NCBI GenBank assembly: GCA_963666055.2
Contig: CAXWPH010000011.1
Coordinates: 160,001-224,000 of the forward strand
Direction: 5' to 3'
DNA: 64,000 nucleotides
Origin: Acidobacteriota bacterium
GTDB lineage: Bacteria > Acidobacteriota > UBA890 > WLXD01
Part shown: positions 3,057 through 17,100 of the stretch, piece by piece
Layout: every line of letters begins with the position of its first letter
Position numbering within the stretch: position 1 is the stretch's first letter
The notes under the pieces: model-generated
The model's input: the letters and a program-made list of their open reading frames with translations, nothing else
Databases searched by the model: none
Told to the model about the DNA's origin: nothing
Translations under genes and position numbers: made by a program

Positions 3057-3860
3057 ATGACAATGCGTAGACTTTTCCATCGGCTCGTGGTCGCTTTGGC
3101 GATCACCCTGACGTTCGGATCGGCGGTGGCGTCAGCCCAGGACGACAAGGTGAGCGCGGGGCGCCCCGGCGAGACGGAGGCTACCGACGTGATCTCCCCG
3201 GGGCAGGTCCAAATCGAAATGGGATTCAGTTTCGGTCGTGACACGGACGGCAGCAATGTCAGCAAGACGAGCGCGTTCCCGTCTACACTCGTTCGCTTGG
3301 GGCTAATCGATCGCCTCGAGCTGAACCTAAGCAGCGATGGTCTGCTCATTGAGAGCATCAGCGGCACATCTGGACGCCATCGTGATGCCGGCACTGGCGA
3401 TCCCGTGGTCGGCTTCAGGTACCACGTCGCAGACGGGAGTGGGTTGCTGCCGTCAGCCGCGGTAGTGGTATCTACTTCCCTCCCCGCGGCTGGAGAGCCC
3501 TTCGGCAACAGCCACAGCGACTTCAATGTAGCCTTCGCGGCCAGTCATTCCCTGGGCAGCGATGCCGCCTTCGACTGGACAATGTCGTACTTAGGCCCGA
3601 TCGGGAAGGCGGACGACGCTACCTCTCAACTTAGTTACGCGGCCGCACTGGGACTCGACATCACTACGAGACTCGGGACGTTCGTGGAGGTCTTCGGCGA
3701 CGTACCGAGCGCCGGGGGCTCGGACGGCAGCACCTCTGTCGGCGGCGGCTTCATCCGTTACATCGGACGTCACATGAGTGTAGATCTCTCGATCGCCGTC
3801 GGTCTCTCCGGAGCCTCTGAAGACTTGCGCTTTGGCTTCGGTTTGGTGGCGCATCTCTAG
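3057..3860 (+). CDS. Outer-membrane beta-barrel 'transporter' (MetA-pathway/Phenol_MetA_deg-like)
   Basis: Signal peptide ending ASA-Q; RPGETEATDVISPGQVQIEMG and GTGDPVVGFRY motifs; alternating beta pattern. Confidence 0.75.
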   Translation: MTMRRLFHRLVVALAITLTFGSAVASAQDDKVSAGRPGETEATDVISPGQVQIEMGFSFGRDTDGSNVSKTSAFPSTLVRLGLIDRLELNLSSDGLLIESISGTSGRHRDAGTGDPVVGFRYHVADGSGLLPSAAVVVSTSLPAAGEPFGNSHSDFNVAFAASHSLGSDAAFDWTMSYLGPIGKADDATSQLSYAAALGLDITTRLGTFVEVFGDVPSAGGSDGSTSVGGGFIRYIGRHMSVDLSIAVGLSGASEDLRFGFGLVAHL

Positions 3861-6683: not shown

Positions 6684-8435
6684 ATGCCCAACGACCCTCC
6701 AGTGCCAGCCATGATGCGACTGACGCCCGAATCGCCGCGTACCGACCCGCAGGGCGGCAGCTCCCTGGTCGGCGATAGCGATTGCCGACACAACTTCTGC
6801 CGCCATTTCGGTATGGGGGGGAGGAAGGAGAGCCAGCTCAAAGCGCGGCTGGCGTATGCGCTGCAAAACCGGCTGCGGGCGTTCGGCACTCTCATCGTGT
6901 TGGTGGCGGGGTTCGGGCTAACGCGCCACATCTTTTTCCCCGCGGACTTCTCGCTGCTCCCGCCGCTTTTCGTGTGGCTTACGGTCGCGGCGGCCACCGC
7001 CTACCTCTATAGGCGGCAAGAAGCGCCGCTCGGCCCGCTGCGCCTCATCGAGGGGTGGTTCTTTGCCGGCACCGTGATGGCGATGGCATTCCAGAGCTAC
7101 CACCTCATCCTCGAGGGAGCACGGTTGCCGATCGCCGAGGAAGCAGCCGCCATGACGATGCTCCACTGGTTCCGGCTCTGCCTGCACATGGCGCTCATCA
7201 TCGCGGCCTACGCCATGTTCATGCCGGCGAGCTGGAAGCGAACGCTGGCACATACGCTGCCGATGGCGGTGTGGCCCTTCGCCTTCGGCTGGTGGATGAT
7301 CGGCGCACATGCGGAGGTGGCGGCGGCCGCGGCGCAGCAGGCCGACTTCGAGAAGGTCTCGGCCGCGGCGCTCGCCATGGCCACGGCATTGAGTATCGCC
7401 GTCTTCGGCACCTACATCATCGACTCGTTGCGGCAGGCAGACTACGAGCGCGGCTTCGCGAGCCAGTACCACCTGGAGAAGAAGCTCGGCAAGGGCGGCA
7501 TGGGCGAGGTATGGCTGGCGCGCCACAACCTGTTGACGCGGCCGGCGGCCATCAAGGTGATCCGGCCCGAGATGCTGCGCGACAGCGGAGGCCCGTCGGG
7601 ATCGACCGCGATCACCCTGGCGATGAAGCGCTTCGAGCGGGAGGCGCAGGCTACCGCCACATTAACCTCGCCGAACACGATCGAGCTCTACGACTTCGGC
7701 ACCACGGAAGATGGTTCGTTCTACTACGTCATGGAGTATCTCGATGGGCTCGATCTTGACACGCTGGTCGAGAACCACGGGCCGGTCTCGATCGCCCGGG
7801 CCGTCTACCTACTCACCCAGGCCTGCGATTCCCTCGCCGACGCCCACGAGCACGGGCTGATCCACCGCGACGTGAAGCCAGCGAACATCTTCGCCACCCG
7901 CAAGGGAATCAACTACGACTTCGTGAAAGTGCTCGACTTCGGGCTGGTAAAGGACGTCGACACTTCCGAGAACGGGCGGACCCAGCTCACCGGAGAGGGT
8001 ATGGCCTCGGGCACTCCCGCCTATATGCCTCCCGAGATCGCGCTGGGCAAGAAGGATGTCGATCGCCGCGCCGACATCTATGCCCTGGGCGCGGTGGGCT
8101 ACTGGCTCGCCACAGGCCAGCTTGTCTTCGACTCCCGGTTGCCCATGGAGATGGTGGTCGACCACGTCAAGACCGAGCCGAAGGCCCCCTCATCCCGCAC
8201 CGAGCTAGCGATCCCGCAGCAGTTCGACGAGGTCATCCTGCGGACGCTCGCCAAGGATCCGGAAGGGCGCTTTCAAAGTATGCGCCAGTTTGCAGACGCC
8301 TTGCGCGATATCCCGACCGAGGGAACCTGGGACAACCGGCAGGCCGAGGGCTGGTGGAAGCTGCACGGTAACGGCTCCGGCGGCAACGGTGCCGCGGTCG
8401 GCGAAGCCGTCGACGCGAGCGCAACCGCCCATTAG
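6684..8435 (+). CDS. Membrane-anchored Hanks-type Ser/Thr protein kinase (start uncertain: 6684, 6711 or 6813)
   Basis: N-terminal TM helices, then LGKGGMGEVW, AIKVI, HRDVKPAN, DFGLVK and GTPAYMPPE. Confidence 0.92.
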   Translation: MPNDPPVPAMMRLTPESPRTDPQGGSSLVGDSDCRHNFCRHFGMGGRKESQLKARLAYALQNRLRAFGTLIVLVAGFGLTRHIFFPADFSLLPPLFVWLTVAAATAYLYRRQEAPLGPLRLIEGWFFAGTVMAMAFQSYHLILEGARLPIAEEAAAMTMLHWFRLCLHMALIIAAYAMFMPASWKRTLAHTLPMAVWPFAFGWWMIGAHAEVAAAAAQQADFEKVSAAALAMATALSIAVFGTYIIDSLRQADYERGFASQYHLEKKLGKGGMGEVWLARHNLLTRPAAIKVIRPEMLRDSGGPSGSTAITLAMKRFEREAQATATLTSPNTIELYDFGTTEDGSFYYVMEYLDGLDLDTLVENHGPVSIARAVYLLTQACDSLADAHEHGLIHRDVKPANIFATRKGINYDFVKVLDFGLVKDVDTSENGRTQLTGEGMASGTPAYMPPEIALGKKDVDRRADIYALGAVGYWLATGQLVFDSRLPMEMVVDHVKTEPKAPSSRTELAIPQQFDEVILRTLAKDPEGRFQSMRQFADALRDIPTEGTWDNRQAEGWWKLHGNGSGGNGAAVGEAVDASATAH

Positions 8436-8460
8436 GCGGCAGCGCACCCTCACGAGTGTC

Positions 8461-8729
8461 CTAGCAGGCCGTGGTGAAAGTGTGGTGGGTCTGGCGACAG
8501 GGTCTTGCGAAGTGGAGGCAAGGAGAGAGGAGGAGGCGATGGTTACCCCATCGTTGACGAGGAACGACGCAGGATACGCGCGCAACCCCCTGTCGCCCGA
8601 AGGGTTACGGCGAGTTGCAGCGTTGGCCTTCCTCGACGATGGCTAGGGCATCGCCCGTGTCAGGCCGCCTTCCATCTGGCCCCAACTCGCCGTAACCAGA
8701 CCCACCACACTTTCACCACGGCCTGCTAG
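8461..8729. mobile_element. MITE copy with ~10-bp internal deletion (269 bp)
   Basis: Perfect 34-bp inverted ends including CTAG at 8461-8464 and 8726-8729. Confidence 0.92.
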
Positions 8730-8819
8730 CCCGGGCAAATCCTGAGGTTCATGAGATCGCACTCGAACAACTTCTTTCGATATCCCTGTTGTTTGCAAGC
8801 GGAGGGCGCGCCATGAGAA

Positions 8820-8838
8820 TTAGGTTCCGCTAAACTAC
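8820..8838. promoter_or_regulatory. Putative DtxR/IdeR/MntR-family operator
   Basis: TTAGGTTCCGCTAAACTAC matches the DtxR consensus TTAGGTTAGSCTAACCTAA at 15/19; extra CCTAA half-site at 8851-8855; lies ~115 bp upstream of the operon. Confidence 0.55.
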
Positions 8839-8951
8839 GGTTCAGTCGTGCCTAATTTCGTGTCACGGTGGCCGCTCGGGAGAGATCCTCGAGCGCGACG
8901 ACGACTTCTTCGTCGGCGTCGGAAACTGCATCCGCTGGTAGCGAGGAAGTG

Positions 8952-10877
8952 ATGGACTCCTGGGCCCCCGCCGCAGCTTCGGCGACGAGAAGTCGCCGCC
9001 TGCCCTTGCTGGCAACAGTCGTTCTCGGAGCACTCTTTCTGCTCCCGCTGACCGGACGATCCCACATCATCCGCGAGGAACCCTGGCACCCGGTACCAGC
9101 GGCGTATCTGCGCAGCATGTTCTACCTGAAGCTACAGCCGGTGAACTGGACGCTAGTCGCTGCGGAGTTCGAGGGCGTGCGTGAGAGCGGTTGGCAGCTC
9201 GACTCGGTCTACGACGGCATCGCGCTGGCCACAGAGCTCGAGGGCACCGACCACACGGCAACGATCCGCGCCGCCATCGCGGCCACCGATGCAGAGTCGT
9301 TTTCGGCTTCGGCCACGCGAGCGGTGTCGCAACTCGTGCGGTTACATCTGCGGCGCGCGCTGGCCAATCTCGACGCGCCAGGGGCAGCCCTCGAGGAGGT
9401 GCATCAGGCCAGCCGGATGTTCCGTGCATTCGACCGATTCGTGCGTGCCACCGACTCGCAGGGCGCTCGAGAACTGGGCCGTGCGTGGCTCGAGCTGACC
9501 ACGACGGTGGGCACAGCCGGAATCGGGAATCGCGGCGTGAAGCCGGTCGACAGGGAGCGTTTCGCCAGCGCCGCCGAGACCGTGGAGGCTTACCTCACCG
9601 CCAACTACGAGCGCGACGGCGGGCCGAGCATGACCCACTTCAACCCGGTTCCGGCGATCGGTCGCAACTCGACAGCCGGGGTGGCGCCCTGGTTGCCGCC
9701 GGCCACCGACCTCAACGACCAGGATCCTCTGCCCCGCCTGGTGCTGAACTTCGAGGAGCGCGGCGTCGACGAGAAAGATCTGTTCCTGGTGACCTACGGG
9801 GACATGCTCTTCGATTCGCCGCAGATCTTCGGCGAGCCGGCGCTCAGCCTCGGTCTCTCGTGCTCGCGTTGCCATAACCGTAGCGACATCAACCAACGGT
9901 TCTTCATCCCGGGAATCAGCACGCGTCCCGGCAACGTCGACGTCGACGGACACTACTTCAACCCGCGCTTCAACGATCGCCGCGCCGACGCGCTCGACAT
10001 CCCGAGCTTGCGCGGCCTCCGGTTCACGGCGCCCTATGGCCGCGACGGCCGTTTCGCAAGCCTGCGTAACTTCACCCGGAACGTCGTGGTCAACGAGTTC
10101 GCCGGCGAGGAGCCCTCGCCGTTGATGCTCGATGCTCTGGTCGCCTACATGTTCGAGTTCGATTGGCTGCCGGCGCCCTACCTGCAGCCTGACGGCCGGC
10201 TCAACGACGCCGCTTCCGACTCCGCCCGGCGCGGCGAGGTACTGTTCAATCGCCCGTTCGACGGCATGGGCGGACGCGCTTGCAGTACCTGTCATGTGCC
10301 GAGCAACAACTTCCTCGACGGCCAGCGACACGACATCGGTAGCGGCGAACGGTCGAGCCCGGGCGCTCGGGACACGTTCTTCGACACGCCGACGTTGATC
10401 GGCGTGTTGCACACTGCGCCGTACTTTCACGACGGGTCGGTGGTAACTCTCGCCGAAGTTGTCGATTGGCTCGATGATCAGTTCGACCTCGGCCTCGACG
10501 ACAACCAGCACTCCGACTTGACGATCTACCTCGAGACGGTGGGCGAAGGCACAGACCCGTACGAGGTGTTCGACGAGGACAACACGCTGTTCCAGCTGTT
10601 CTGGGGTGAGCTGTCGACGTTTGCCTCGACCCTGTCGACGCTCATTCCTGCGCGCGACGCCGAGCACGCCGACCTCATGCTGCGCACAGTCGCCGCCGAC
10701 TTGAGACTCGACGCCTCGGCGCTCGAGAATCTGGCACAGGCACCCAAGGTCTTCGAGCTCGCCGACCAGCTCGACGATATCCGTGCGTCAATCGACGCCG
10801 ACGATTGGCGCCGGGCGGCGCAGCTGTGGATCGAATACCAGGCGCTCGAAGCCGCTTACGGACCCGATTTCCGCTGA
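8952..10877 (+). CDS. Exported di-heme cytochrome c, bacterial CcP/MauG superfamily, with extra N- and C-terminal helical domains
   Basis: Signal peptide; CSRCH and CSTCH; IPSLRGLRFTAPYGRDG and TPTLIGVLHTAPYFHDG family motifs. Confidence 0.85.
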   Translation: MDSWAPAAASATRSRRLPLLATVVLGALFLLPLTGRSHIIREEPWHPVPAAYLRSMFYLKLQPVNWTLVAAEFEGVRESGWQLDSVYDGIALATELEGTDHTATIRAAIAATDAESFSASATRAVSQLVRLHLRRALANLDAPGAALEEVHQASRMFRAFDRFVRATDSQGARELGRAWLELTTTVGTAGIGNRGVKPVDRERFASAAETVEAYLTANYERDGGPSMTHFNPVPAIGRNSTAGVAPWLPPATDLNDQDPLPRLVLNFEERGVDEKDLFLVTYGDMLFDSPQIFGEPALSLGLSCSRCHNRSDINQRFFIPGISTRPGNVDVDGHYFNPRFNDRRADALDIPSLRGLRFTAPYGRDGRFASLRNFTRNVVVNEFAGEEPSPLMLDALVAYMFEFDWLPAPYLQPDGRLNDAASDSARRGEVLFNRPFDGMGGRACSTCHVPSNNFLDGQRHDIGSGERSSPGARDTFFDTPTLIGVLHTAPYFHDGSVVTLAEVVDWLDDQFDLGLDDNQHSDLTIYLETVGEGTDPYEVFDEDNTLFQLFWGELSTFASTLSTLIPARDAEHADLMLRTVAADLRLDASALENLAQAPKVFELADQLDDIRASIDADDWRRAAQLWIEYQALEAAYGPDFR

Positions 10878-10905
10878 CCTCGGCCGACACGGCGAGGAGG
10901 ACGAT

Positions 10906-11793
10906 ATGAACCGACGATTCCGGAAAGCCACGGCGATCCTAGCGACCTCACTGGCGTTGTGCGCGGTGCAACCGGCCGGCCAGGCCGCGGCGATACCTCA
11001 GGACAAGCTGACGTTGGCGTTCATTCCACAGGAAAACCCCGAGAAGCTGCTCGACGATATCTCGGTCATTCGCGACTATCTGTCCGAGGAAATGGGAATG
11101 GCGGTCGACGGTTTTGTAACGCTCGACCACGCTGCCGCGGTCGAGGCGCTGCGCAACGGTACCGCCGATATCTCGTTCATGGGTGCCTTGCCCTACGTCC
11201 TGGCGCACCACCACGTCGACGCTCAAGTAGTGCTCGCCGAAATCTATCGCGGCAGCCCGATGTATCGGGCGCGCCTGTTCGTGCGGCGCGACAGCGGCAT
11301 CACTAAACTCGCCGACCTGCGTGGCAAGAGCATTGCCTTCGCCGATCCGATCTCGGAGTCCGGCTATCTGTACCCGCTCGATCTGTTTGCAGACGCTGGC
11401 TTCTTGACGCCTGGCGATGACCCGCAAACATTCTTCAGCTCGGTCTACTTCGCGGGCGGCTACCAGCAGGCCATCCAGGCAGTAGCGAACGGTTACGTAG
11501 ACGCTGCCGGCGCCAGCCAATACGCCGAGCTGCTGCTGACGCCCAAGCAGTTGCTGGAGGTAACTTCGATCGCCGAATCGGATCTGATCCCCTCGCACGC
11601 CGTGATCGCGCGGGGCGATCTCGACCCGATCGTCGTAGCGGCGTTCAAGCGAGCCATGCTGAAGCTCAACGACGACGATTACCGGCACCTGCTGCAGTAC
11701 GTGTACGGCCCCGACGGCTACGTTGAGGTCGACCATGCCGCCTTCGCGGGCGTGGAGGCCCTGGCGCGAGAGTATGGCTATCTGCAGAACTAG
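10906..11793 (+). CDS. PhnD/PtxB-fold ABC substrate-binding protein with atypical binding residues
   Basis: GAGGAGG RBS; signal peptide; LAFIPQE, DLRGKSIAFADPISESGYLYP and FAGGY. Confidence 0.85.
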   Translation: MNRRFRKATAILATSLALCAVQPAGQAAAIPQDKLTLAFIPQENPEKLLDDISVIRDYLSEEMGMAVDGFVTLDHAAAVEALRNGTADISFMGALPYVLAHHHVDAQVVLAEIYRGSPMYRARLFVRRDSGITKLADLRGKSIAFADPISESGYLYPLDLFADAGFLTPGDDPQTFFSSVYFAGGYQQAIQAVANGYVDAAGASQYAELLLTPKQLLEVTSIAESDLIPSHAVIARGDLDPIVVAAFKRAMLKLNDDDYRHLLQYVYGPDGYVEVDHAAFAGVEALAREYGYLQN

Positions 11794-11872
11794 CGTCCTG
11801 TGGTGGCAATCTCGGTGTTGCGATTCGTCGACGATGGGCGAGGCATCGAGCCGTTCCTGAAGGGAGCAATCC

Positions 11873-12664
11873 GTGTCTGAGCCGGTACTCCGCCTGCGCG
11901 ACCTACGCGTTCGCTACGGCTCCAGGCCGCCGGTCCTCGACGTCGGCGCGCTGGAGGTCGCCGCCGGGGAGATCGTTTGTGTCATCGGGTCCAGCGGCGC
12001 CGGCAAGACGACGCTTCTGCGACTGGCCAACGGCTACGTGCGCGCCGAGAGCGGTGAACTCGAGGTCCTCGGTACACCGACTCGCTTCGGGCCCGACAGC
12101 GGCACCGATCGGCGCGACCGGATGCTGCGGCAGCGCGTAGGCTTCGTATTCCAGAGTTTCAACGTTATCGAACGCGCCAGCGTGTTCGACAACGTCCTCT
12201 GGGGTTCGCTCGGCCGCCAACATGGCCTCGGCGCGCTGCTCGGCCGCTTTCCCGAAAGCGACCGACGCCTGGCCATGGAGGCGATTGCCGAGGTCGATCT
12301 GTTGGCGCAGACCACACAGCGTGTGGATACCTTGAGCGGCGGCCAGCAGCAGCGGGTCGGTGTGGCGCGCGTCATCATGCAGCAGCCGGAACTGGTGCTC
12401 GCCGACGAGCCGGTGTCGAGCCTCGATCCGGTGCTCGCCGAGGAGATCGTCGAGTTGCTCGTCGGGGTCGCCCGGCGACACGGCAAGACGTTGATCATGA
12501 GCCTGCACCTGCCAGCGCTGGCGCAGCGTTTCGCCGATCGCGTGGTCGGGCTGCGAGCCGGCGGGGTGGTCTGGGACGGTGCCGCGGTGGCTCTGGACGA
12601 CACCGCCATCGCCTCGATCTACGGATCTGAATCGCCACCGCCGGCGCCGGAGGTCGGACAATGA
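11873..12664 (+). CDS. ABC ATPase, PhnC-like
   Basis: GSSGAGKTT, LSGGQQQRV, LADEPVSSLDP and SLH. Confidence 0.92.
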   Translation: MSEPVLRLRDLRVRYGSRPPVLDVGALEVAAGEIVCVIGSSGAGKTTLLRLANGYVRAESGELEVLGTPTRFGPDSGTDRRDRMLRQRVGFVFQSFNVIERASVFDNVLWGSLGRQHGLGALLGRFPESDRRLAMEAIAEVDLLAQTTQRVDTLSGGQQQRVGVARVIMQQPELVLADEPVSSLDPVLAEEIVELLVGVARRHGKTLIMSLHLPALAQRFADRVVGLRAGGVVWDGAAVALDDTAIASIYGSESPPPAPEVGQ

Positions 12665-13473
12665 GGTCTGATGCCCACACGGCCAGCCCCGCTGCCCCTG
12701 CGCCACCCGAACAGAGTCTGGGCACGACGCTGCGTCGCTCCACCGGGATGATTGCTCTGGCTGTGGTGGTCGCTTGGGCGTGGCACGGTACCGGCTTCGA
12801 GCTCAGCCGCCTGGGCGGCAGCCTCGCGCCACTGATCGAGTTCTTAGACCGCATGACCCCACCGGATCTGTCGGCACTCGAAGTGGCGATGAGATCGACG
12901 GCCGAGACGCTCCAGATCGCCGTGCTCGGGACGTTCTTGGCCGTCGTCCTGTCGATACCGCCGGCGTTGTTGGCGGCGGCGAACCTAACGGCGGCGTGGA
13001 TCCACCAGCCGGTGCGCTGGCTTCTGGCGCTGCTGCGCGGTATTCCACTGCTGTTGCTGGCACTGATGTTCGTTGCTGCGCTTGGCTTGGGACCCGTACC
13101 CGGCGTGCTCGCCGTGGCCGTGCATTCGGTCGGCATGCTGGCCAAGTTCTACGCCGACGCCTTCGAGAGCGCCCGGCCGGGCCCCATCGAAGCGCTCGAC
13201 TCCGCCGGCGCCAACTGGCTCCAGCGCGTACGCTACGGTGTGCTGACGCAGGTAGCGCCCGATCTGGCTCGCGACACGCTGTTCCGCTTCGAGCTGAACC
13301 TACGCGAGTCGCTGGTCTTAGGCCTCGTCGGTGCGGGCGGTATCGGCTTCTACATTCAGCTCTACATCCGTTCCTTCCGCTACACGAGGGTGGCCACCCT
13401 GACGCTGGTGATCCTGGTGATCGTCGTGCTGGTAGAACAGGGCAGCGTCGCGATTCGTCGCCGGCTCAGCTGA
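12661..13473 (+). CDS. ABC permease, PhnE/PtxC-like
   Basis: ETLQIAVLGT, LAKFYADAFE..GPIEAL and RFELNLRES.LGLVGAGGIG; ATGA overlap with the ATPase. Confidence 0.9.
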   Translation: MRSDAHTASPAAPAPPEQSLGTTLRRSTGMIALAVVVAWAWHGTGFELSRLGGSLAPLIEFLDRMTPPDLSALEVAMRSTAETLQIAVLGTFLAVVLSIPPALLAAANLTAAWIHQPVRWLLALLRGIPLLLLALMFVAALGLGPVPGVLAVAVHSVGMLAKFYADAFESARPGPIEALDSAGANWLQRVRYGVLTQVAPDLARDTLFRFELNLRESLVLGLVGAGGIGFYIQLYIRSFRYTRVATLTLVILVIVVLVEQGSVAIRRRLS

Positions 13474-13489
13474 GACGCGGTTGTCTCCC

Positions 13490-13801
13490 CTACCCCGCCC
13501 GGCGCTCGGCGATCAGGCTGGCGGCGAAGCCGTCGTAGTCGGCAGCGCGACGCTGCAGCATGTCGCGCAGATGCTCCAACGCCTTCTCCTTGCTCGATAG
13601 CCCGTACATGTAGATCTTGAGCGGGCCGATCAAGCCGAGGTAGTAGTGGTTGGTGGCGTCGTACTCGGCGGCGCAGGCGCTCGGATCGATGGCGACTGCG
13701 AGCAGATCGTCGAAGGTGTCGGCGAACTGCGCCAGCAGCGGTTCCCGATGTAGGTCTGTCGGAATCTCAGGGAAGCGAGTGACGAGGTCTTGGACGGTCA
13801 T
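13490..13801 (-). CDS. Hypothetical protein (~103 aa; start may be 13879)
   Basis: MTVQDLVTRFPEIP...PSACAAEYDATNHYY; typical codon usage. Confidence 0.6.
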   Translation of the reverse strand: MTVQDLVTRFPEIPTDLHREPLLAQFADTFDDLLAVAIDPSACAAEYDATNHYYLGLIGPLKIYMYGLSSKEKALEHLRDMLQRRAADYDGFAASLIAERRAG

Positions 13802-16020: not shown

Positions 16021-16962
16021 TCACGGGACGATGATGTAGCGTAGGCCGAATAGCACGTTGATACTCGGCGCCAGCTGCGTGCCGTTGAGGTAACGAACCG
16101 CGGGGAGCTGCACACCGGCCTCGACGACGAAGTTGGGCCGCAGCAGGTACTGGATTCCGGGGGAAAGATACAGGAGGTTTCCGCCTGAACTGTCGACTTC
16201 CTGGTCGCCGGCGCGCGAGTGTCCCTGCCAACGGCCGTTGAGCTCCAGTAGCAAGAAGACGTCGCGGGAGCGCAATGACGAGATCCGTGTCTTGACCATA
16301 GCATCGTAGCGGAACCGGTCGCCAAGCTCGAAATCGTTGGCCTCCGTGCTTCGCGAGACGCCGACACTGGCAGTGAAGAACCAGCGGGCGGAAGGGGTCA
16401 CATAGCTTGCGATGAAGTCGGCGGTCGGGTCCCAGGATCCAGTCCCACGTTGGAGCGGCGGCGACAACAACTGCCCGTTCGATGAGTCGCGCGCGTCGCC
16501 GCGACCGGTCGGGGTCTTGACACCGCCCTGAAACGACAGCTGGACTCCTCCTCTGCCGCGATCCCGCTTCAGGAAGCGCCACTTGACCAGCAGGGTCGCA
16601 TCGCCGAAGCCCAGGCCGGCTCCAAGACGCTCTGTGCCCGCCGGGCCGTCGATTCGCATCTCCTTGTCGAGTACCGGGAATACGCCGATCAAGCTGACCT
16701 TGCGGTGCAACCCGTACACCACGGCCATCGATACCACGCTTGCTTTGAACCTACGCCCCAGAGGGTTGGGGACCTGCGCGCTGCCGCTCAGCGTGTCGTT
16801 GGCCTGCAGGAAGCTCGCCACGGTGCGGATGCCGAATCCGGAGATGAACTCCGCTCGCGCCCCCGGCGCGAAGATCTGGGCGCTCGACTCCCCGGGCCAA
16901 CCAAGAGTCAACGCCAGCACCGCGTACAGTGCCGGTCGCGATATGGTCGCTTTGCTGTTCAT
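16021..16962 (-). CDS. Outer-membrane beta-barrel 'transporter' family protein
   Basis: Signal peptide ending SSA-Q; GFGDATLLVKWRF, GVKTPTG, LQRGTGSWD and LYLSPGIQY. Confidence 0.8.
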   Translation of the reverse strand: MNSKATISRPALYAVLALTLGWPGESSAQIFAPGARAEFISGFGIRTVASFLQANDTLSGSAQVPNPLGRRFKASVVSMAVVYGLHRKVSLIGVFPVLDKEMRIDGPAGTERLGAGLGFGDATLLVKWRFLKRDRGRGGVQLSFQGGVKTPTGRGDARDSSNGQLLSPPLQRGTGSWDPTADFIASYVTPSARWFFTASVGVSRSTEANDFELGDRFRYDAMVKTRISSLRSRDVFLLLELNGRWQGHSRAGDQEVDSSGGNLLYLSPGIQYLLRPNFVVEAGVQLPAVRYLNGTQLAPSINVLFGLRYIIVP

Positions 16963-17100
16963 GCTGCTTCGTCGCTTTCCGCCGCGGCGCGGTCGCCGAA
17001 CGGCCCCTCTCGTCCGATCGCATCCAGAATCGGGCACTCGCCCACGGGCCCCTCTCCCTCGCACTGTCGCGCAATCGCATCAGCGCACACCGCATTTGAC
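16959..17100 (-). pseudogene. C-terminal remnant of a metal-sensing MerR-family regulator (CueR/ZntR/MerR type)
   Basis: QMRCALMRLRDS [1-nt shift] CEGEGPVGECPILDAIG...EAA*; its TGA overlaps the ATG of the barrel gene; no intact HTH seen upstream. Confidence 0.7.

Follow-up and report, generated by a model that had tools for sequence, protein, structure and literature searches.

The 64,000-nt stretch analyzed here (contig CAXWPH010000011.1 of an Acidobacteriota bacterium; hereafter the window, to whose positions coordinates refer unless another contig is named) carries a four-gene cassette that, judged from its sequence, most likely encodes a metal ATP-binding cassette (ABC) importer that uses the framework of an oxyanion transporter and has an obligatory di-heme partner. 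All four genes lie on the forward strand. They encode a di-heme protein of the cytochrome c peroxidase (CCP)/MauG-like type (8952..10877; 641 aa), a periplasmic binding protein of the PhnD/PtxB fold (10906..11793; 295 aa), a PhnC-like ABC ATPase (11873..12664; 263 aa), and a PhnE-type ABC permease (12661..13473; 270 aa). Our preferred reading, held with a little more confidence than doubt, is that this PhnCDE-type system is a manganese-repressed metal importer whose binding protein is predicted to take a metal cation as its ligand, manganese being the most likely one. Manganese is favored on account of the operator sequences of manganese-repressor type (MntR/DtxR or Mur) found ahead of the cassette in most lineages, and iron is the second candidate because the donor set is Fe(III)-like. 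An earlier note on this DNA had proposed a PhnDCE-like transporter re-tooled from oxyanions to a metal cation at 10906..13473; these coordinates are exact and enclose three co-directional genes.

Binding Protein Family and Ligand Pocket

The binding protein belongs to PF12974 (Phosphonate-bd, class II binding-protein fold; E = 2e-57) and passes the TIGR01098 subfamily model (172.9; cut-off 112). It falls below the cut-off of the PhnD equivalog TIGR03431 (164.5 vs. 261.1 bits), and it gave no match to PF01297 (ZnuA/PsaA fold) at E <= 0.01. The permease passes the PhnE equivalog TIGR01097 (264.9; cut-off 216.7), and the ATPase (PF00005, E = 1.1e-28) lies narrowly under the PhnC model TIGR02315 (244.3 vs. 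266.1 bits). In HMMER searches, the closest solved relatives of the binding protein are PtxB structures (5lv1, E = 6.4e-27, then 5o2j and 5jvb), followed by HtxB, AioX, ArrX, and E. coli PhnD.

Pocket equivalences were taken from the HMMER alignment to PtxB 5jvb, indexed on the residue numbers of PMC5700983; the alignment indices reproduce that numbering for D22, Y55, S130-T131-S132, H160, and Y208. The latch residue D22 of Te_PtxB corresponds to Q42 in the window protein, the domain-1 tyrosine Y55 to H75, and S130/T131/S132 to S150/E151/S152. H160 corresponds to Y186 and the cap residue Y208 to H231, and the tyrosine at Y100 is kept as Y120. In PtxB, residues at these positions hydrogen-bond the phosphite oxygens or cap the P-H group, according to the same paper (PMC5700983). 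The window protein lacks the oxyanion motif of S-T-S plus histidine, together with the domain-1 tyrosine (Te_PtxB Y55, S130-T131-S132, H160), and has H75, S-E-S, and Y186 instead. The motifs on which the earlier note had based its proposal are all present (DHAAAVEA at residues 74-81, MYRA at 119-122, SESG at 150-153, GGY at 184-186, and IPSH at 228-231). Each substitution that it named coincides in the HMMER alignment with a published ligand-contact position of PtxB (PMC5700983). By alignment, the pocket has exchanged oxyanion hydrogen-bond donors for one glutamate, two histidines, and two tyrosines.

The AlphaFold2 (AF2) model of the binding protein has a predicted local distance difference test (pLDDT) score of 93. 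Its template modeling (TM) score in Foldseek is 0.85-0.86 to liganded PtxB (E ~1e-26) and 0.59-0.62 to apo-open PtxB. H75, E151, and Y186 are each the first residue of a helix (residues 75-83, 151-163, and 186-194), Y120 is on the strand 119-127, and H231 lies between the strands 219-229 and 232-235. From homology to closed PtxB, we infer that the side chains of E151, Y186, H231, and H75 converge in the cleft. Beyond the PhnD family and one sterol transporter, the next Foldseek matches were transferrins (E ~1e-14).

Conservation of the Pocket

The clade of the window protein was represented by 200 sequences (196 distinct), comprising 120 database proteins and the proteins of 80 loci. E151, Y186, H231, Y120, Y114, Q42, E43, Q187, and Q188 are invariant (200/200), and H75 is present in 194, with glutamine in five and proline in one. 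The pocket residues are thus conserved across the clade tied to the di-heme gene, as the earlier note's proposal had called for, and on this sequence record the replacements are not chance. Among 4953 candidates, 1459 database proteins were related at E <= 1e-10; the best 120 are all at least 63% identical to the window protein and come from many phyla. In a 50%-identity representative library the clade collapses to a few clusters, and outside it identity is at most 44%.

The wider family was sampled with 118 other 50%-identity cluster representatives of at least 240 aa from among the best 150. At position 151 these have T in 57, A in 24, S in 16, and E in 5, and all five glutamate cases are members or fragments of the window protein's clade. 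Tyrosine occupies position 75 in 98 of them and histidine position 186 in 73, and at position 231 there are 41 cases of D and 33 of H. The canonical combination of Y75 and H186 occurs in 67 of the 118 representatives, and D186 with H231 in seven.

A single sister-clade locus was seen, on a metagenome contig (L110:5-4289). Its binding protein is 43% identical to that of the window and has a different but again acidic pocket (DY, VDMSG, GGDEQ, PSH). The gene order is the same as in the window (di-heme, binding protein, ATPase, permease). Because this locus has the di-heme link and not the H/E/Y/H pocket, the di-heme link appears to be the older of the two.

Distribution and Composition of the Cassette

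The locus survey covered one genome per prokaryotic species; relatives are encoded in 225 stretches, of which 80 loci were kept. A di-heme homologue is directly upstream of the binding-protein gene in 78 of the 80; the remaining two loci sit at a contig edge, with the binding-protein gene first. Every locus whose contig continues has ATPase and permease genes next, on the 3' side. By record titles, the carriers span at least eight phyla and include Acidobacteriota, Methylomirabilales, Thermodesulfobacteriota, Dadabacteria, Chloroflexota (Caldilineaceae, Anaerolineae), Deinococcota (Trueperaceae), Spirochaetia, and Alpha- and Gammaproteobacteria. Marine Rhodobacterales are among them, and cultured carriers include Leisingera aquaemixtae, Pseudovibrio axinellae, Hoeflea, Bosea, and Labrenzia. 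Within the window organism's family the gene was found in 7 of 11 genomes, so the cassette is accessory there.

In the window, the open reading frame of the di-heme gene opens with GTG at 8868, and ATG at 8952 is the likely start; the gene ends 29 bases 5' of the binding-protein gene. The latter starts with ATG at 10906, with the Shine-Dalgarno sequence GAGGAGG 8 nt 5' of it, and there is a 4-nt overlap between the end of the ATPase gene and the start of the permease gene. In all 66 complete loci, conservation among the four proteins is highest for the binding protein. Its median identity to the window protein in these loci is 63%, compared with 54% (permease), 51% (di-heme protein), and 46% (ATPase), which is the reverse of the usual order for ABC importers.

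The earlier note expected automated annotation to call the system a phosphonate transporter. Where the source records name the binding protein, the name is indeed always that of a phosphonate or phosphate/phosphite/phosphonate binding protein (for example, "phosphonate transport system substrate-binding protein"); the others are unnamed, and the di-heme protein appears as "cytochrome c peroxidase" or similar. No match to PhnJ (PF06007) was found in the 95.7%-complete window genome, which extends to the whole genome the earlier observation that no C-P lyase is nearby. Neither C-P lyase nor ptxD is among the conserved neighbors in the 80 loci, and no search aimed at ptxD was made. Nramp-like and ZnuA-like genes are present elsewhere in the window genome.

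In Rhodobacterales and relatives (L044-L080), the cassette lies among copper-homeostasis and envelope genes, with some loci on plasmids. The flanking genes in these loci encode SCO1/SenC (17 loci), P-type ATPase (17), DsbA-like protein (12), MerR (10), YkuD L,D-transpeptidase (10), PCuAC (9), DsbB (8), M23 peptidase (8), signal peptidase II (8), DUF411 (6), and Lnt (5).

Metalloregulators and Operator Sites

A gene for a DtxR/MntR-family repressor (PF01325 plus PF02742), located by tblastn with the window genome's regulator, adjoins the di-heme gene in 36 of the 80 loci. Eight of these regulators are co-directional long forms (Thermodesulfobacteriota, Dadabacteria, Trueperaceae) and 28 are divergent short forms (Alphaproteobacteria). 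Both alphaproteobacterial short forms that were scored pass the NCBIfam MntR equivalog NF008273 (205.7 and 197.8; cut-off 153). One alphaproteobacterial short form matches E. coli MntR 2H09 (E = 1e-41) and, aligned to B. subtilis MntR 1ON1, keeps the EDY..E and E-G-I-E-H-H motifs, which we take to be the metal ligands of MntR. Three long forms and the window genome's regulator reach 176-211 bits on the manganese-dependent MntR model NF047407 (cut-off 350) and 99-112 on iron DtxR; the long forms score about twofold higher on the manganese-type model than on the iron DtxR model. The window genome has a single DtxR-family gene, and none adjoins the cassette in the window.

Most alpha- and gammaproteobacterial loci have the palindrome TTAGCC-nn-GGCTAA at 7-53 nt before the called start of the di-heme gene. 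When the range from -300 to +100 of the di-heme start was scanned with the pattern TTAGSNNNNSCTAA, allowing at most one mismatch, a site was found in 38 of 64 loci; outside this range there were 28 matches in 912 kb. In the three closest acidobacterial loci, the di-heme gene is preceded by an outer-membrane barrel gene, and the operator lies about 80-110 nt upstream of the latter. In the window, the di-heme ATG at 8952 is preceded at a distance of 119 nt by the DtxR/MntR-type operator-like palindrome TTAGGTTCCGCTAA (8820..8833, forward strand). The 64-kb window has no other match to the pattern (0.01 expected; one of 100 shuffles had a match), and the palindrome is one of three sites in the 5.73-Mb window genome. 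The core TAGCC-nn-GGCTA is also the core of MntR sites predicted upstream of mntH, for example in Rhodobacter capsulatus (PMC1698941, Table S5), and the main text of the same paper gives the enterobacterial MntR consensus.

Several loci without an MntR-type site, from Hyphomicrobiales and relatives, carry sequences such as ATTGCAAATCATTCTCATT and GTTGCGAATGATTTGCAAT upstream. These are very similar to the Mur boxes listed for sitABCD and mntH (PMC1698941, Table S4). At a threshold of at least 13 of 18 matches to a consensus built in this analysis from those sites, a Mur-box-like site was found upstream in 11 of 65 loci, mostly Hyphomicrobiales that lack the MntR-type site, and 37 matches occurred elsewhere in 925 kb. 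By these motifs and regulators, the cassette appears to be wired to two different manganese-type regulatory systems in different lineages, and its predicted control by MntR/DtxR or Mur, as part of a manganese-type regulon, is likely. The central claim of the earlier note, a pocket re-tooled for an Fe/Mn-like metal cation, finds support in the manganese-type regulators (36/80), the operators (38/64 and 11/65, and the window's own site, one of three in its genome), the negative PhnJ search, and the PhnD equivalog score below its cut-off.

The other two sites in the window genome form a tandem pair, TTAGCCAAGGCTAA a TTAGCCTTGGCTAA (G000:C14:490714-490742), directly upstream of a gene for a secreted 383-aa protein (L084:6772-7923, P0276). 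The protein combines a CDSCH heme motif at its N-terminus with a barrel-like C-terminal end whose last residue is Phe, and presumably is a porin-cytochrome fusion resembling Cyc2. It gave no Pfam or NCBIfam match, and its ESM Atlas neighbors are unnamed acidobacterial clusters, the nearest named cluster having Porin_O_P in 20% of its members. Its gene adjoins an IS240-family transposase and an integrase.

Di-Heme Partner

Behind its signal peptide, the di-heme protein has an unassigned N-terminal helical domain (residues ~45-260). The di-heme core follows, with the motifs C304xxCH and C444xxCH, neither of which varies among the 37 sequences compared, and four helices form a C-terminal bundle (~538-641). 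The protein matches PF03150 (CCP_MauG; 34.4, cut-off 25.6) and PF21419 (29.3, cut-off 26.7). Its model has a pLDDT of 82, and in VIA-align the core (~264-577) resembles BccP (Z 11.5), the MbnH-like structure 6e1c (Z 11.2), and MauG (Z 10.7), with YhjA and the hydrazine synthase gamma subunit also matched. Foldseek gave no match of the model in the PDB at E <= 0.001 (the best was YhjA, 1.5e-3), and the N-terminal domain had no usable match in the ESM Atlas. The best NCBIfam match of the core is the MbnH family, over 31 residues (44.7 bits; cut-off 363).

In a profile alignment, the Met of the BccP "AVNTM" stretch falls on F507, beside the invariant W506; the window protein has L at 507. Index arithmetic on the table rows places residue 294 of the MauG chain on the same W506/F507 pair. 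We take the BccP Met and MauG residue 294, a Tyr, to be the distal ligands of the second heme in those proteins. By this alignment, distal ligation of the second heme is of neither known type.

The C-terminal bundle (~538-641) has as its top matches PsbQ and CyanoQ of photosystem II (Z 13.3 and 13.0, with 104 residues aligned). This similarity was considered as a link to manganese and rejected, as helical bundles scoring under ~13 are in the chance range of the tool and the match is generic.

Proposed Mechanism

Under the preferred reading of a manganese-repressed metal importer, the repressor would leave the operator when manganese is scarce, and the operon would be transcribed. The metal may cross the outer membrane through a co-encoded beta-barrel, the gene for which is found in acidobacterial, Thermodesulfobacteriota, and Dadabacteria relatives and is not adjacent in the window. 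In the binding protein, the ligands of the ion would be the carboxylate of E151, two phenolates (Y120, Y186), and two imidazoles (H231, H75), with the E151 carboxylate predicted to sit at the N-terminal end of the helix to which the oxyanion binds in PtxB. The PhnE/PhnC-type translocator would then import the ion.

The di-heme partner, by its invariable linkage and its family, likely conditions the redox state of the metal at the binding protein. EfeB, fungal manganese peroxidase, and transferrin chemistry offer analogies for such conditioning. The version we prefer is a peroxide-driven oxidation of Mn(II) to Mn(III), or of Fe(II) to Fe(III), after which the hard Tyr/Tyr/Glu/His site would be selective for the oxidized ion, in the way that Fe(III) is bound by transferrin or FbpA; this last part of the scheme is the least supported. 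Alternatively, the di-heme protein may modify the binding protein, as MbnH does to MbnP.

Taken to its full extent, the scheme would be an oxidation-coupled "bacterial transferrin for manganese": the di-heme enzyme makes periplasmic Mn(III), the Tyr/Tyr/His/His/Glu site traps it with E151 in place of the synergistic anion, and the PhnE-type ABC translocator receives it. We regard this full version as rather doubtful. A rationale for a system that selects on oxidation state comes from two papers reporting that zinc blocks manganese uptake through a classical binding protein (PMC3928430, PMC3207923). If the full version were true, oxidation-state selection would sidestep the Zn(II)/Cu(II) competition that poisons classical Mn(II) binding proteins, and it would explain the position of the Rhodobacterales cassette inside copper-stress islands.

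Evidence Against Manganese Import and Alternative Explanations

Several observations weigh against manganese import. To our knowledge, known Mn(II)-binding proteins use His, Asp, and Glu rather than Tyr, and the ligand set in the window protein looks more like an Fe(III) site. Nor does control by MntR necessarily mark a gene as a manganese importer. The window genome's own regulator scores 189 on NF047407, below the cut-off of 350, with 106 on iron DtxR. The half-sites of TTAGGTTCCGCTAA resemble what we take to be the IdeR iron box. At the thresholds used, 15 of the 64-65 loci have neither operator type. A reversed-pattern control found 14 sites in the window genome against three for the operator pattern; the pattern is not over-represented, so only the placement of the operator is informative. 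At the di-heme protein, neither the Met of bacterial CCP nor the Tyr of MauG was found as distal ligand. In the pocket, H75 is slightly less conserved than E151, Y186, and H231, and half of the oxyanion cradle is kept (S150, S152, G153, Y120); together with a permease that passes the PhnE equivalog, this means that a protonated or neutral oxyacid may still be the ligand. Y186 and H231 occur together in 24 of the 118 wider-family representatives, many of which have S-T/S/A-S intact and Y75, and one protein with Y186/H231 and an intact STS (P0185) is closest to PtxB rather than to AioX or ArrX. As both residues also occur outside the clade they are older, and E151 and H75 are the clade-defining novelties. 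Finally, Mur and Fur-alpha boxes look alike (PMC1698941).

An importer of ferric or ferrous iron would hold Fe(III) in a transferrin/FbpA-like Tyr/Tyr/His/carboxylate site, with the di-heme protein serving as a ferroxidase or peroxidase in the manner of EfeB, the heme peroxidase component of EfeUOB. Two Tyr, two His, and one Glu are classic for Fe(III), transferrins are the next structural neighbors in Foldseek after the PhnD family and the sterol transporter, and DtxR-family regulators include iron sensors. The IdeR-like appearance of TTAGGTTCCGCTAA would also suit iron, as would the position of the genome's only other operator sites before a CxxCH porin that looks Cyc2-like. The regulators themselves point the other way: those adjacent to the cassette are of manganese type, with the MntR equivalog passed by both alphaproteobacterial proteins scored, the long forms prefer the manganese-type over the iron DtxR model by about twofold, and the Hyphomicrobiales upstream sites resemble the Mur boxes of sitABCD and mntH. 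On this evidence we consider iron unlikely.

That the cassette serves another metal (copper, zinc, or cobalt), or that the di-heme enzyme modifies the binding protein to build its site, seems to us quite unlikely. MbnH post-translationally modifies the copper protein MbnP, and the core of the di-heme protein has its best NCBIfam match in the MbnH family and resembles 6e1c (Z 11.2); the family match, however, extends over 31 residues and reaches 44.7 bits (cut-off 363), and the binding protein has no invariant Trp. The top conservation rank of the binding protein in all 66 complete loci would fit an additional protein partner. The copper genes around the Rhodobacterales cassette (SCO1 and P-type ATPase in 17 loci each, MerR in 10, PCuAC in 9, and DUF411 in 6) are limited to one order, whereas MntR/Mur-type operators span phyla, and no DtxR/MntR regulator is known to sense copper. 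A non-metal ligand is very unlikely in our judgment. Here the cargo would be a small solute wanted under manganese limitation (for example, an oxyacid in protonated or neutral form, or some other anion), with the acidic residue recognizing a proton as Asp does in phosphate-binding proteins. Membership in the family (PF12974, the TIGR01098 subfamily, the PhnE equivalog) and the retained S150, S152, G153, and Y120 agree with it, and by their structure titles the relatives AioX and ArrX bind arsenite and arsenate. In addition, an Asp carboxylate contacts phosphite in Pm_PhnD (PMC5700983). Yet the oxyanion-binding His and Thr are both gone and a second His has been gained, the PhnJ search of the genome found no phosphonate catabolism, and the manganese-type regulatory context has no obvious oxyanion link.

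Comparison With Known Systems

PtxB, PhnD, and HtxB with their PhnCE translocators share with the window system the fold (TM 0.85-0.86), the operon partners (PhnE equivalog, PhnC-like ATPase), and the residues Y120, S150, S152, and G153. They differ in that four ligand contacts are replaced in the window protein (Y to H, T to E, H to Y, and cap Y to H), as is the latch (D22 to Q). The cassette also differs from them in its manganese-type regulators in relatives, its di-heme partner, and the lack of any C-P lyase found.

The Fe(III) site of transferrin and FbpA consists of two Tyr, one His, and one carboxylate. The window protein would resemble it in its class II periplasmic-binding-protein fold and in its donor types, with Tyr, Tyr, His, and a carboxylate at the PtxB ligand positions, and E151 presumably sits where the synergistic carbonate or phosphate binds in transferrin and FbpA. 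A second His replaces Asp in the window protein, and a synergistic anion would not be needed. No sequence relationship of the window binding protein to transferrin or FbpA was detected.

Like the cluster A-I importers MntABC, SitABCD, and PsaABC and the NRAMP transporter MntH, the window cassette is under predicted MntR/Mur control, with an operator core identical to that of predicted mntH sites. Unlike the cluster A-I manganese importers, it has an unrelated binding-protein fold (no PF01297 match), a PhnE-type translocator, Tyr donors, and a di-heme partner. In MbnH/MbnP and EfeUOB, a periplasmic protein of a heme peroxidase family is genetically tied to a metal-acquisition protein, and by analogy the window cassette may be similar. 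However, the 641-aa di-heme protein differs from MbnH and EfeB in having extra N- and C-terminal helical domains and W506/F507 at the Met/Tyr ligand position, and its partner is an ABC binding protein rather than MbnP or EfeO.

No paper describing such a system was found in a literature search that lay outside subscription journals and bioRxiv supplements. If the preferred reading is true, the cassette would be a fourth architecture for bacterial manganese or iron import and would give the PhnD/PtxB fold its first metal-cation ligand. Surveys count phnD homologues as phosphonate-uptake potential; because the cassette is widespread and carries phosphonate-type names, such surveys would over-count phosphonate uptake. 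Through its obligatory di-heme partner, the cassette may connect periplasmic peroxide chemistry with metal acquisition in a way that can be tested, and the cultured carriers make the hypothesis directly open to bench work.

Neighboring Genes and Other Features

Outer-membrane beta-barrel genes accompany the cassette in several lineages. They are located 5' of the di-heme gene in L001-L003, two genes upstream in L007, L011, L014, L018, L023, and L024, and downstream of the cassette in L009 and L010. The barrels of Acidobacteriota are of the PF13557 type (Phenol_MetA_deg); Thermodesulfobacteriota and Dadabacteria have a barrel without annotation whose last residue is Phe. Two PF13557 genes lie in the window itself (3057-3860, forward strand; 16021-17064, reverse strand), neither of which resembles the cassette-linked barrels or adjoins the operon.

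A Ser/Thr protein kinase gene (6684..8435, forward strand) is directly upstream of a miniature inverted-repeat transposable element (MITE) and the operon. The Pkinase domain occupies residues 262-532 of its product and is preceded by ~260 residues with several hydrophobic stretches. A kinase gene next to the cassette was found in none of the 80 related loci. A scan of 8440-13800 for promoters and terminators gave nothing exceeding shuffles.

The MITE-like element (8461-8729, ~270 bp) lies between the kinase gene and the operator. In the first scoring, CTAGCCCGGGCAAA at 8727-8740 had been taken as the window operator; it was rejected because it overlaps the terminal repeat of this element. The arms of the element are inverted repeats of 47 nt that are 87% complementary and have a perfect 34-nt core. 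At least 40 near-full-length copies, at 92-94% identity, are present in the genome among the 119 matches listed.

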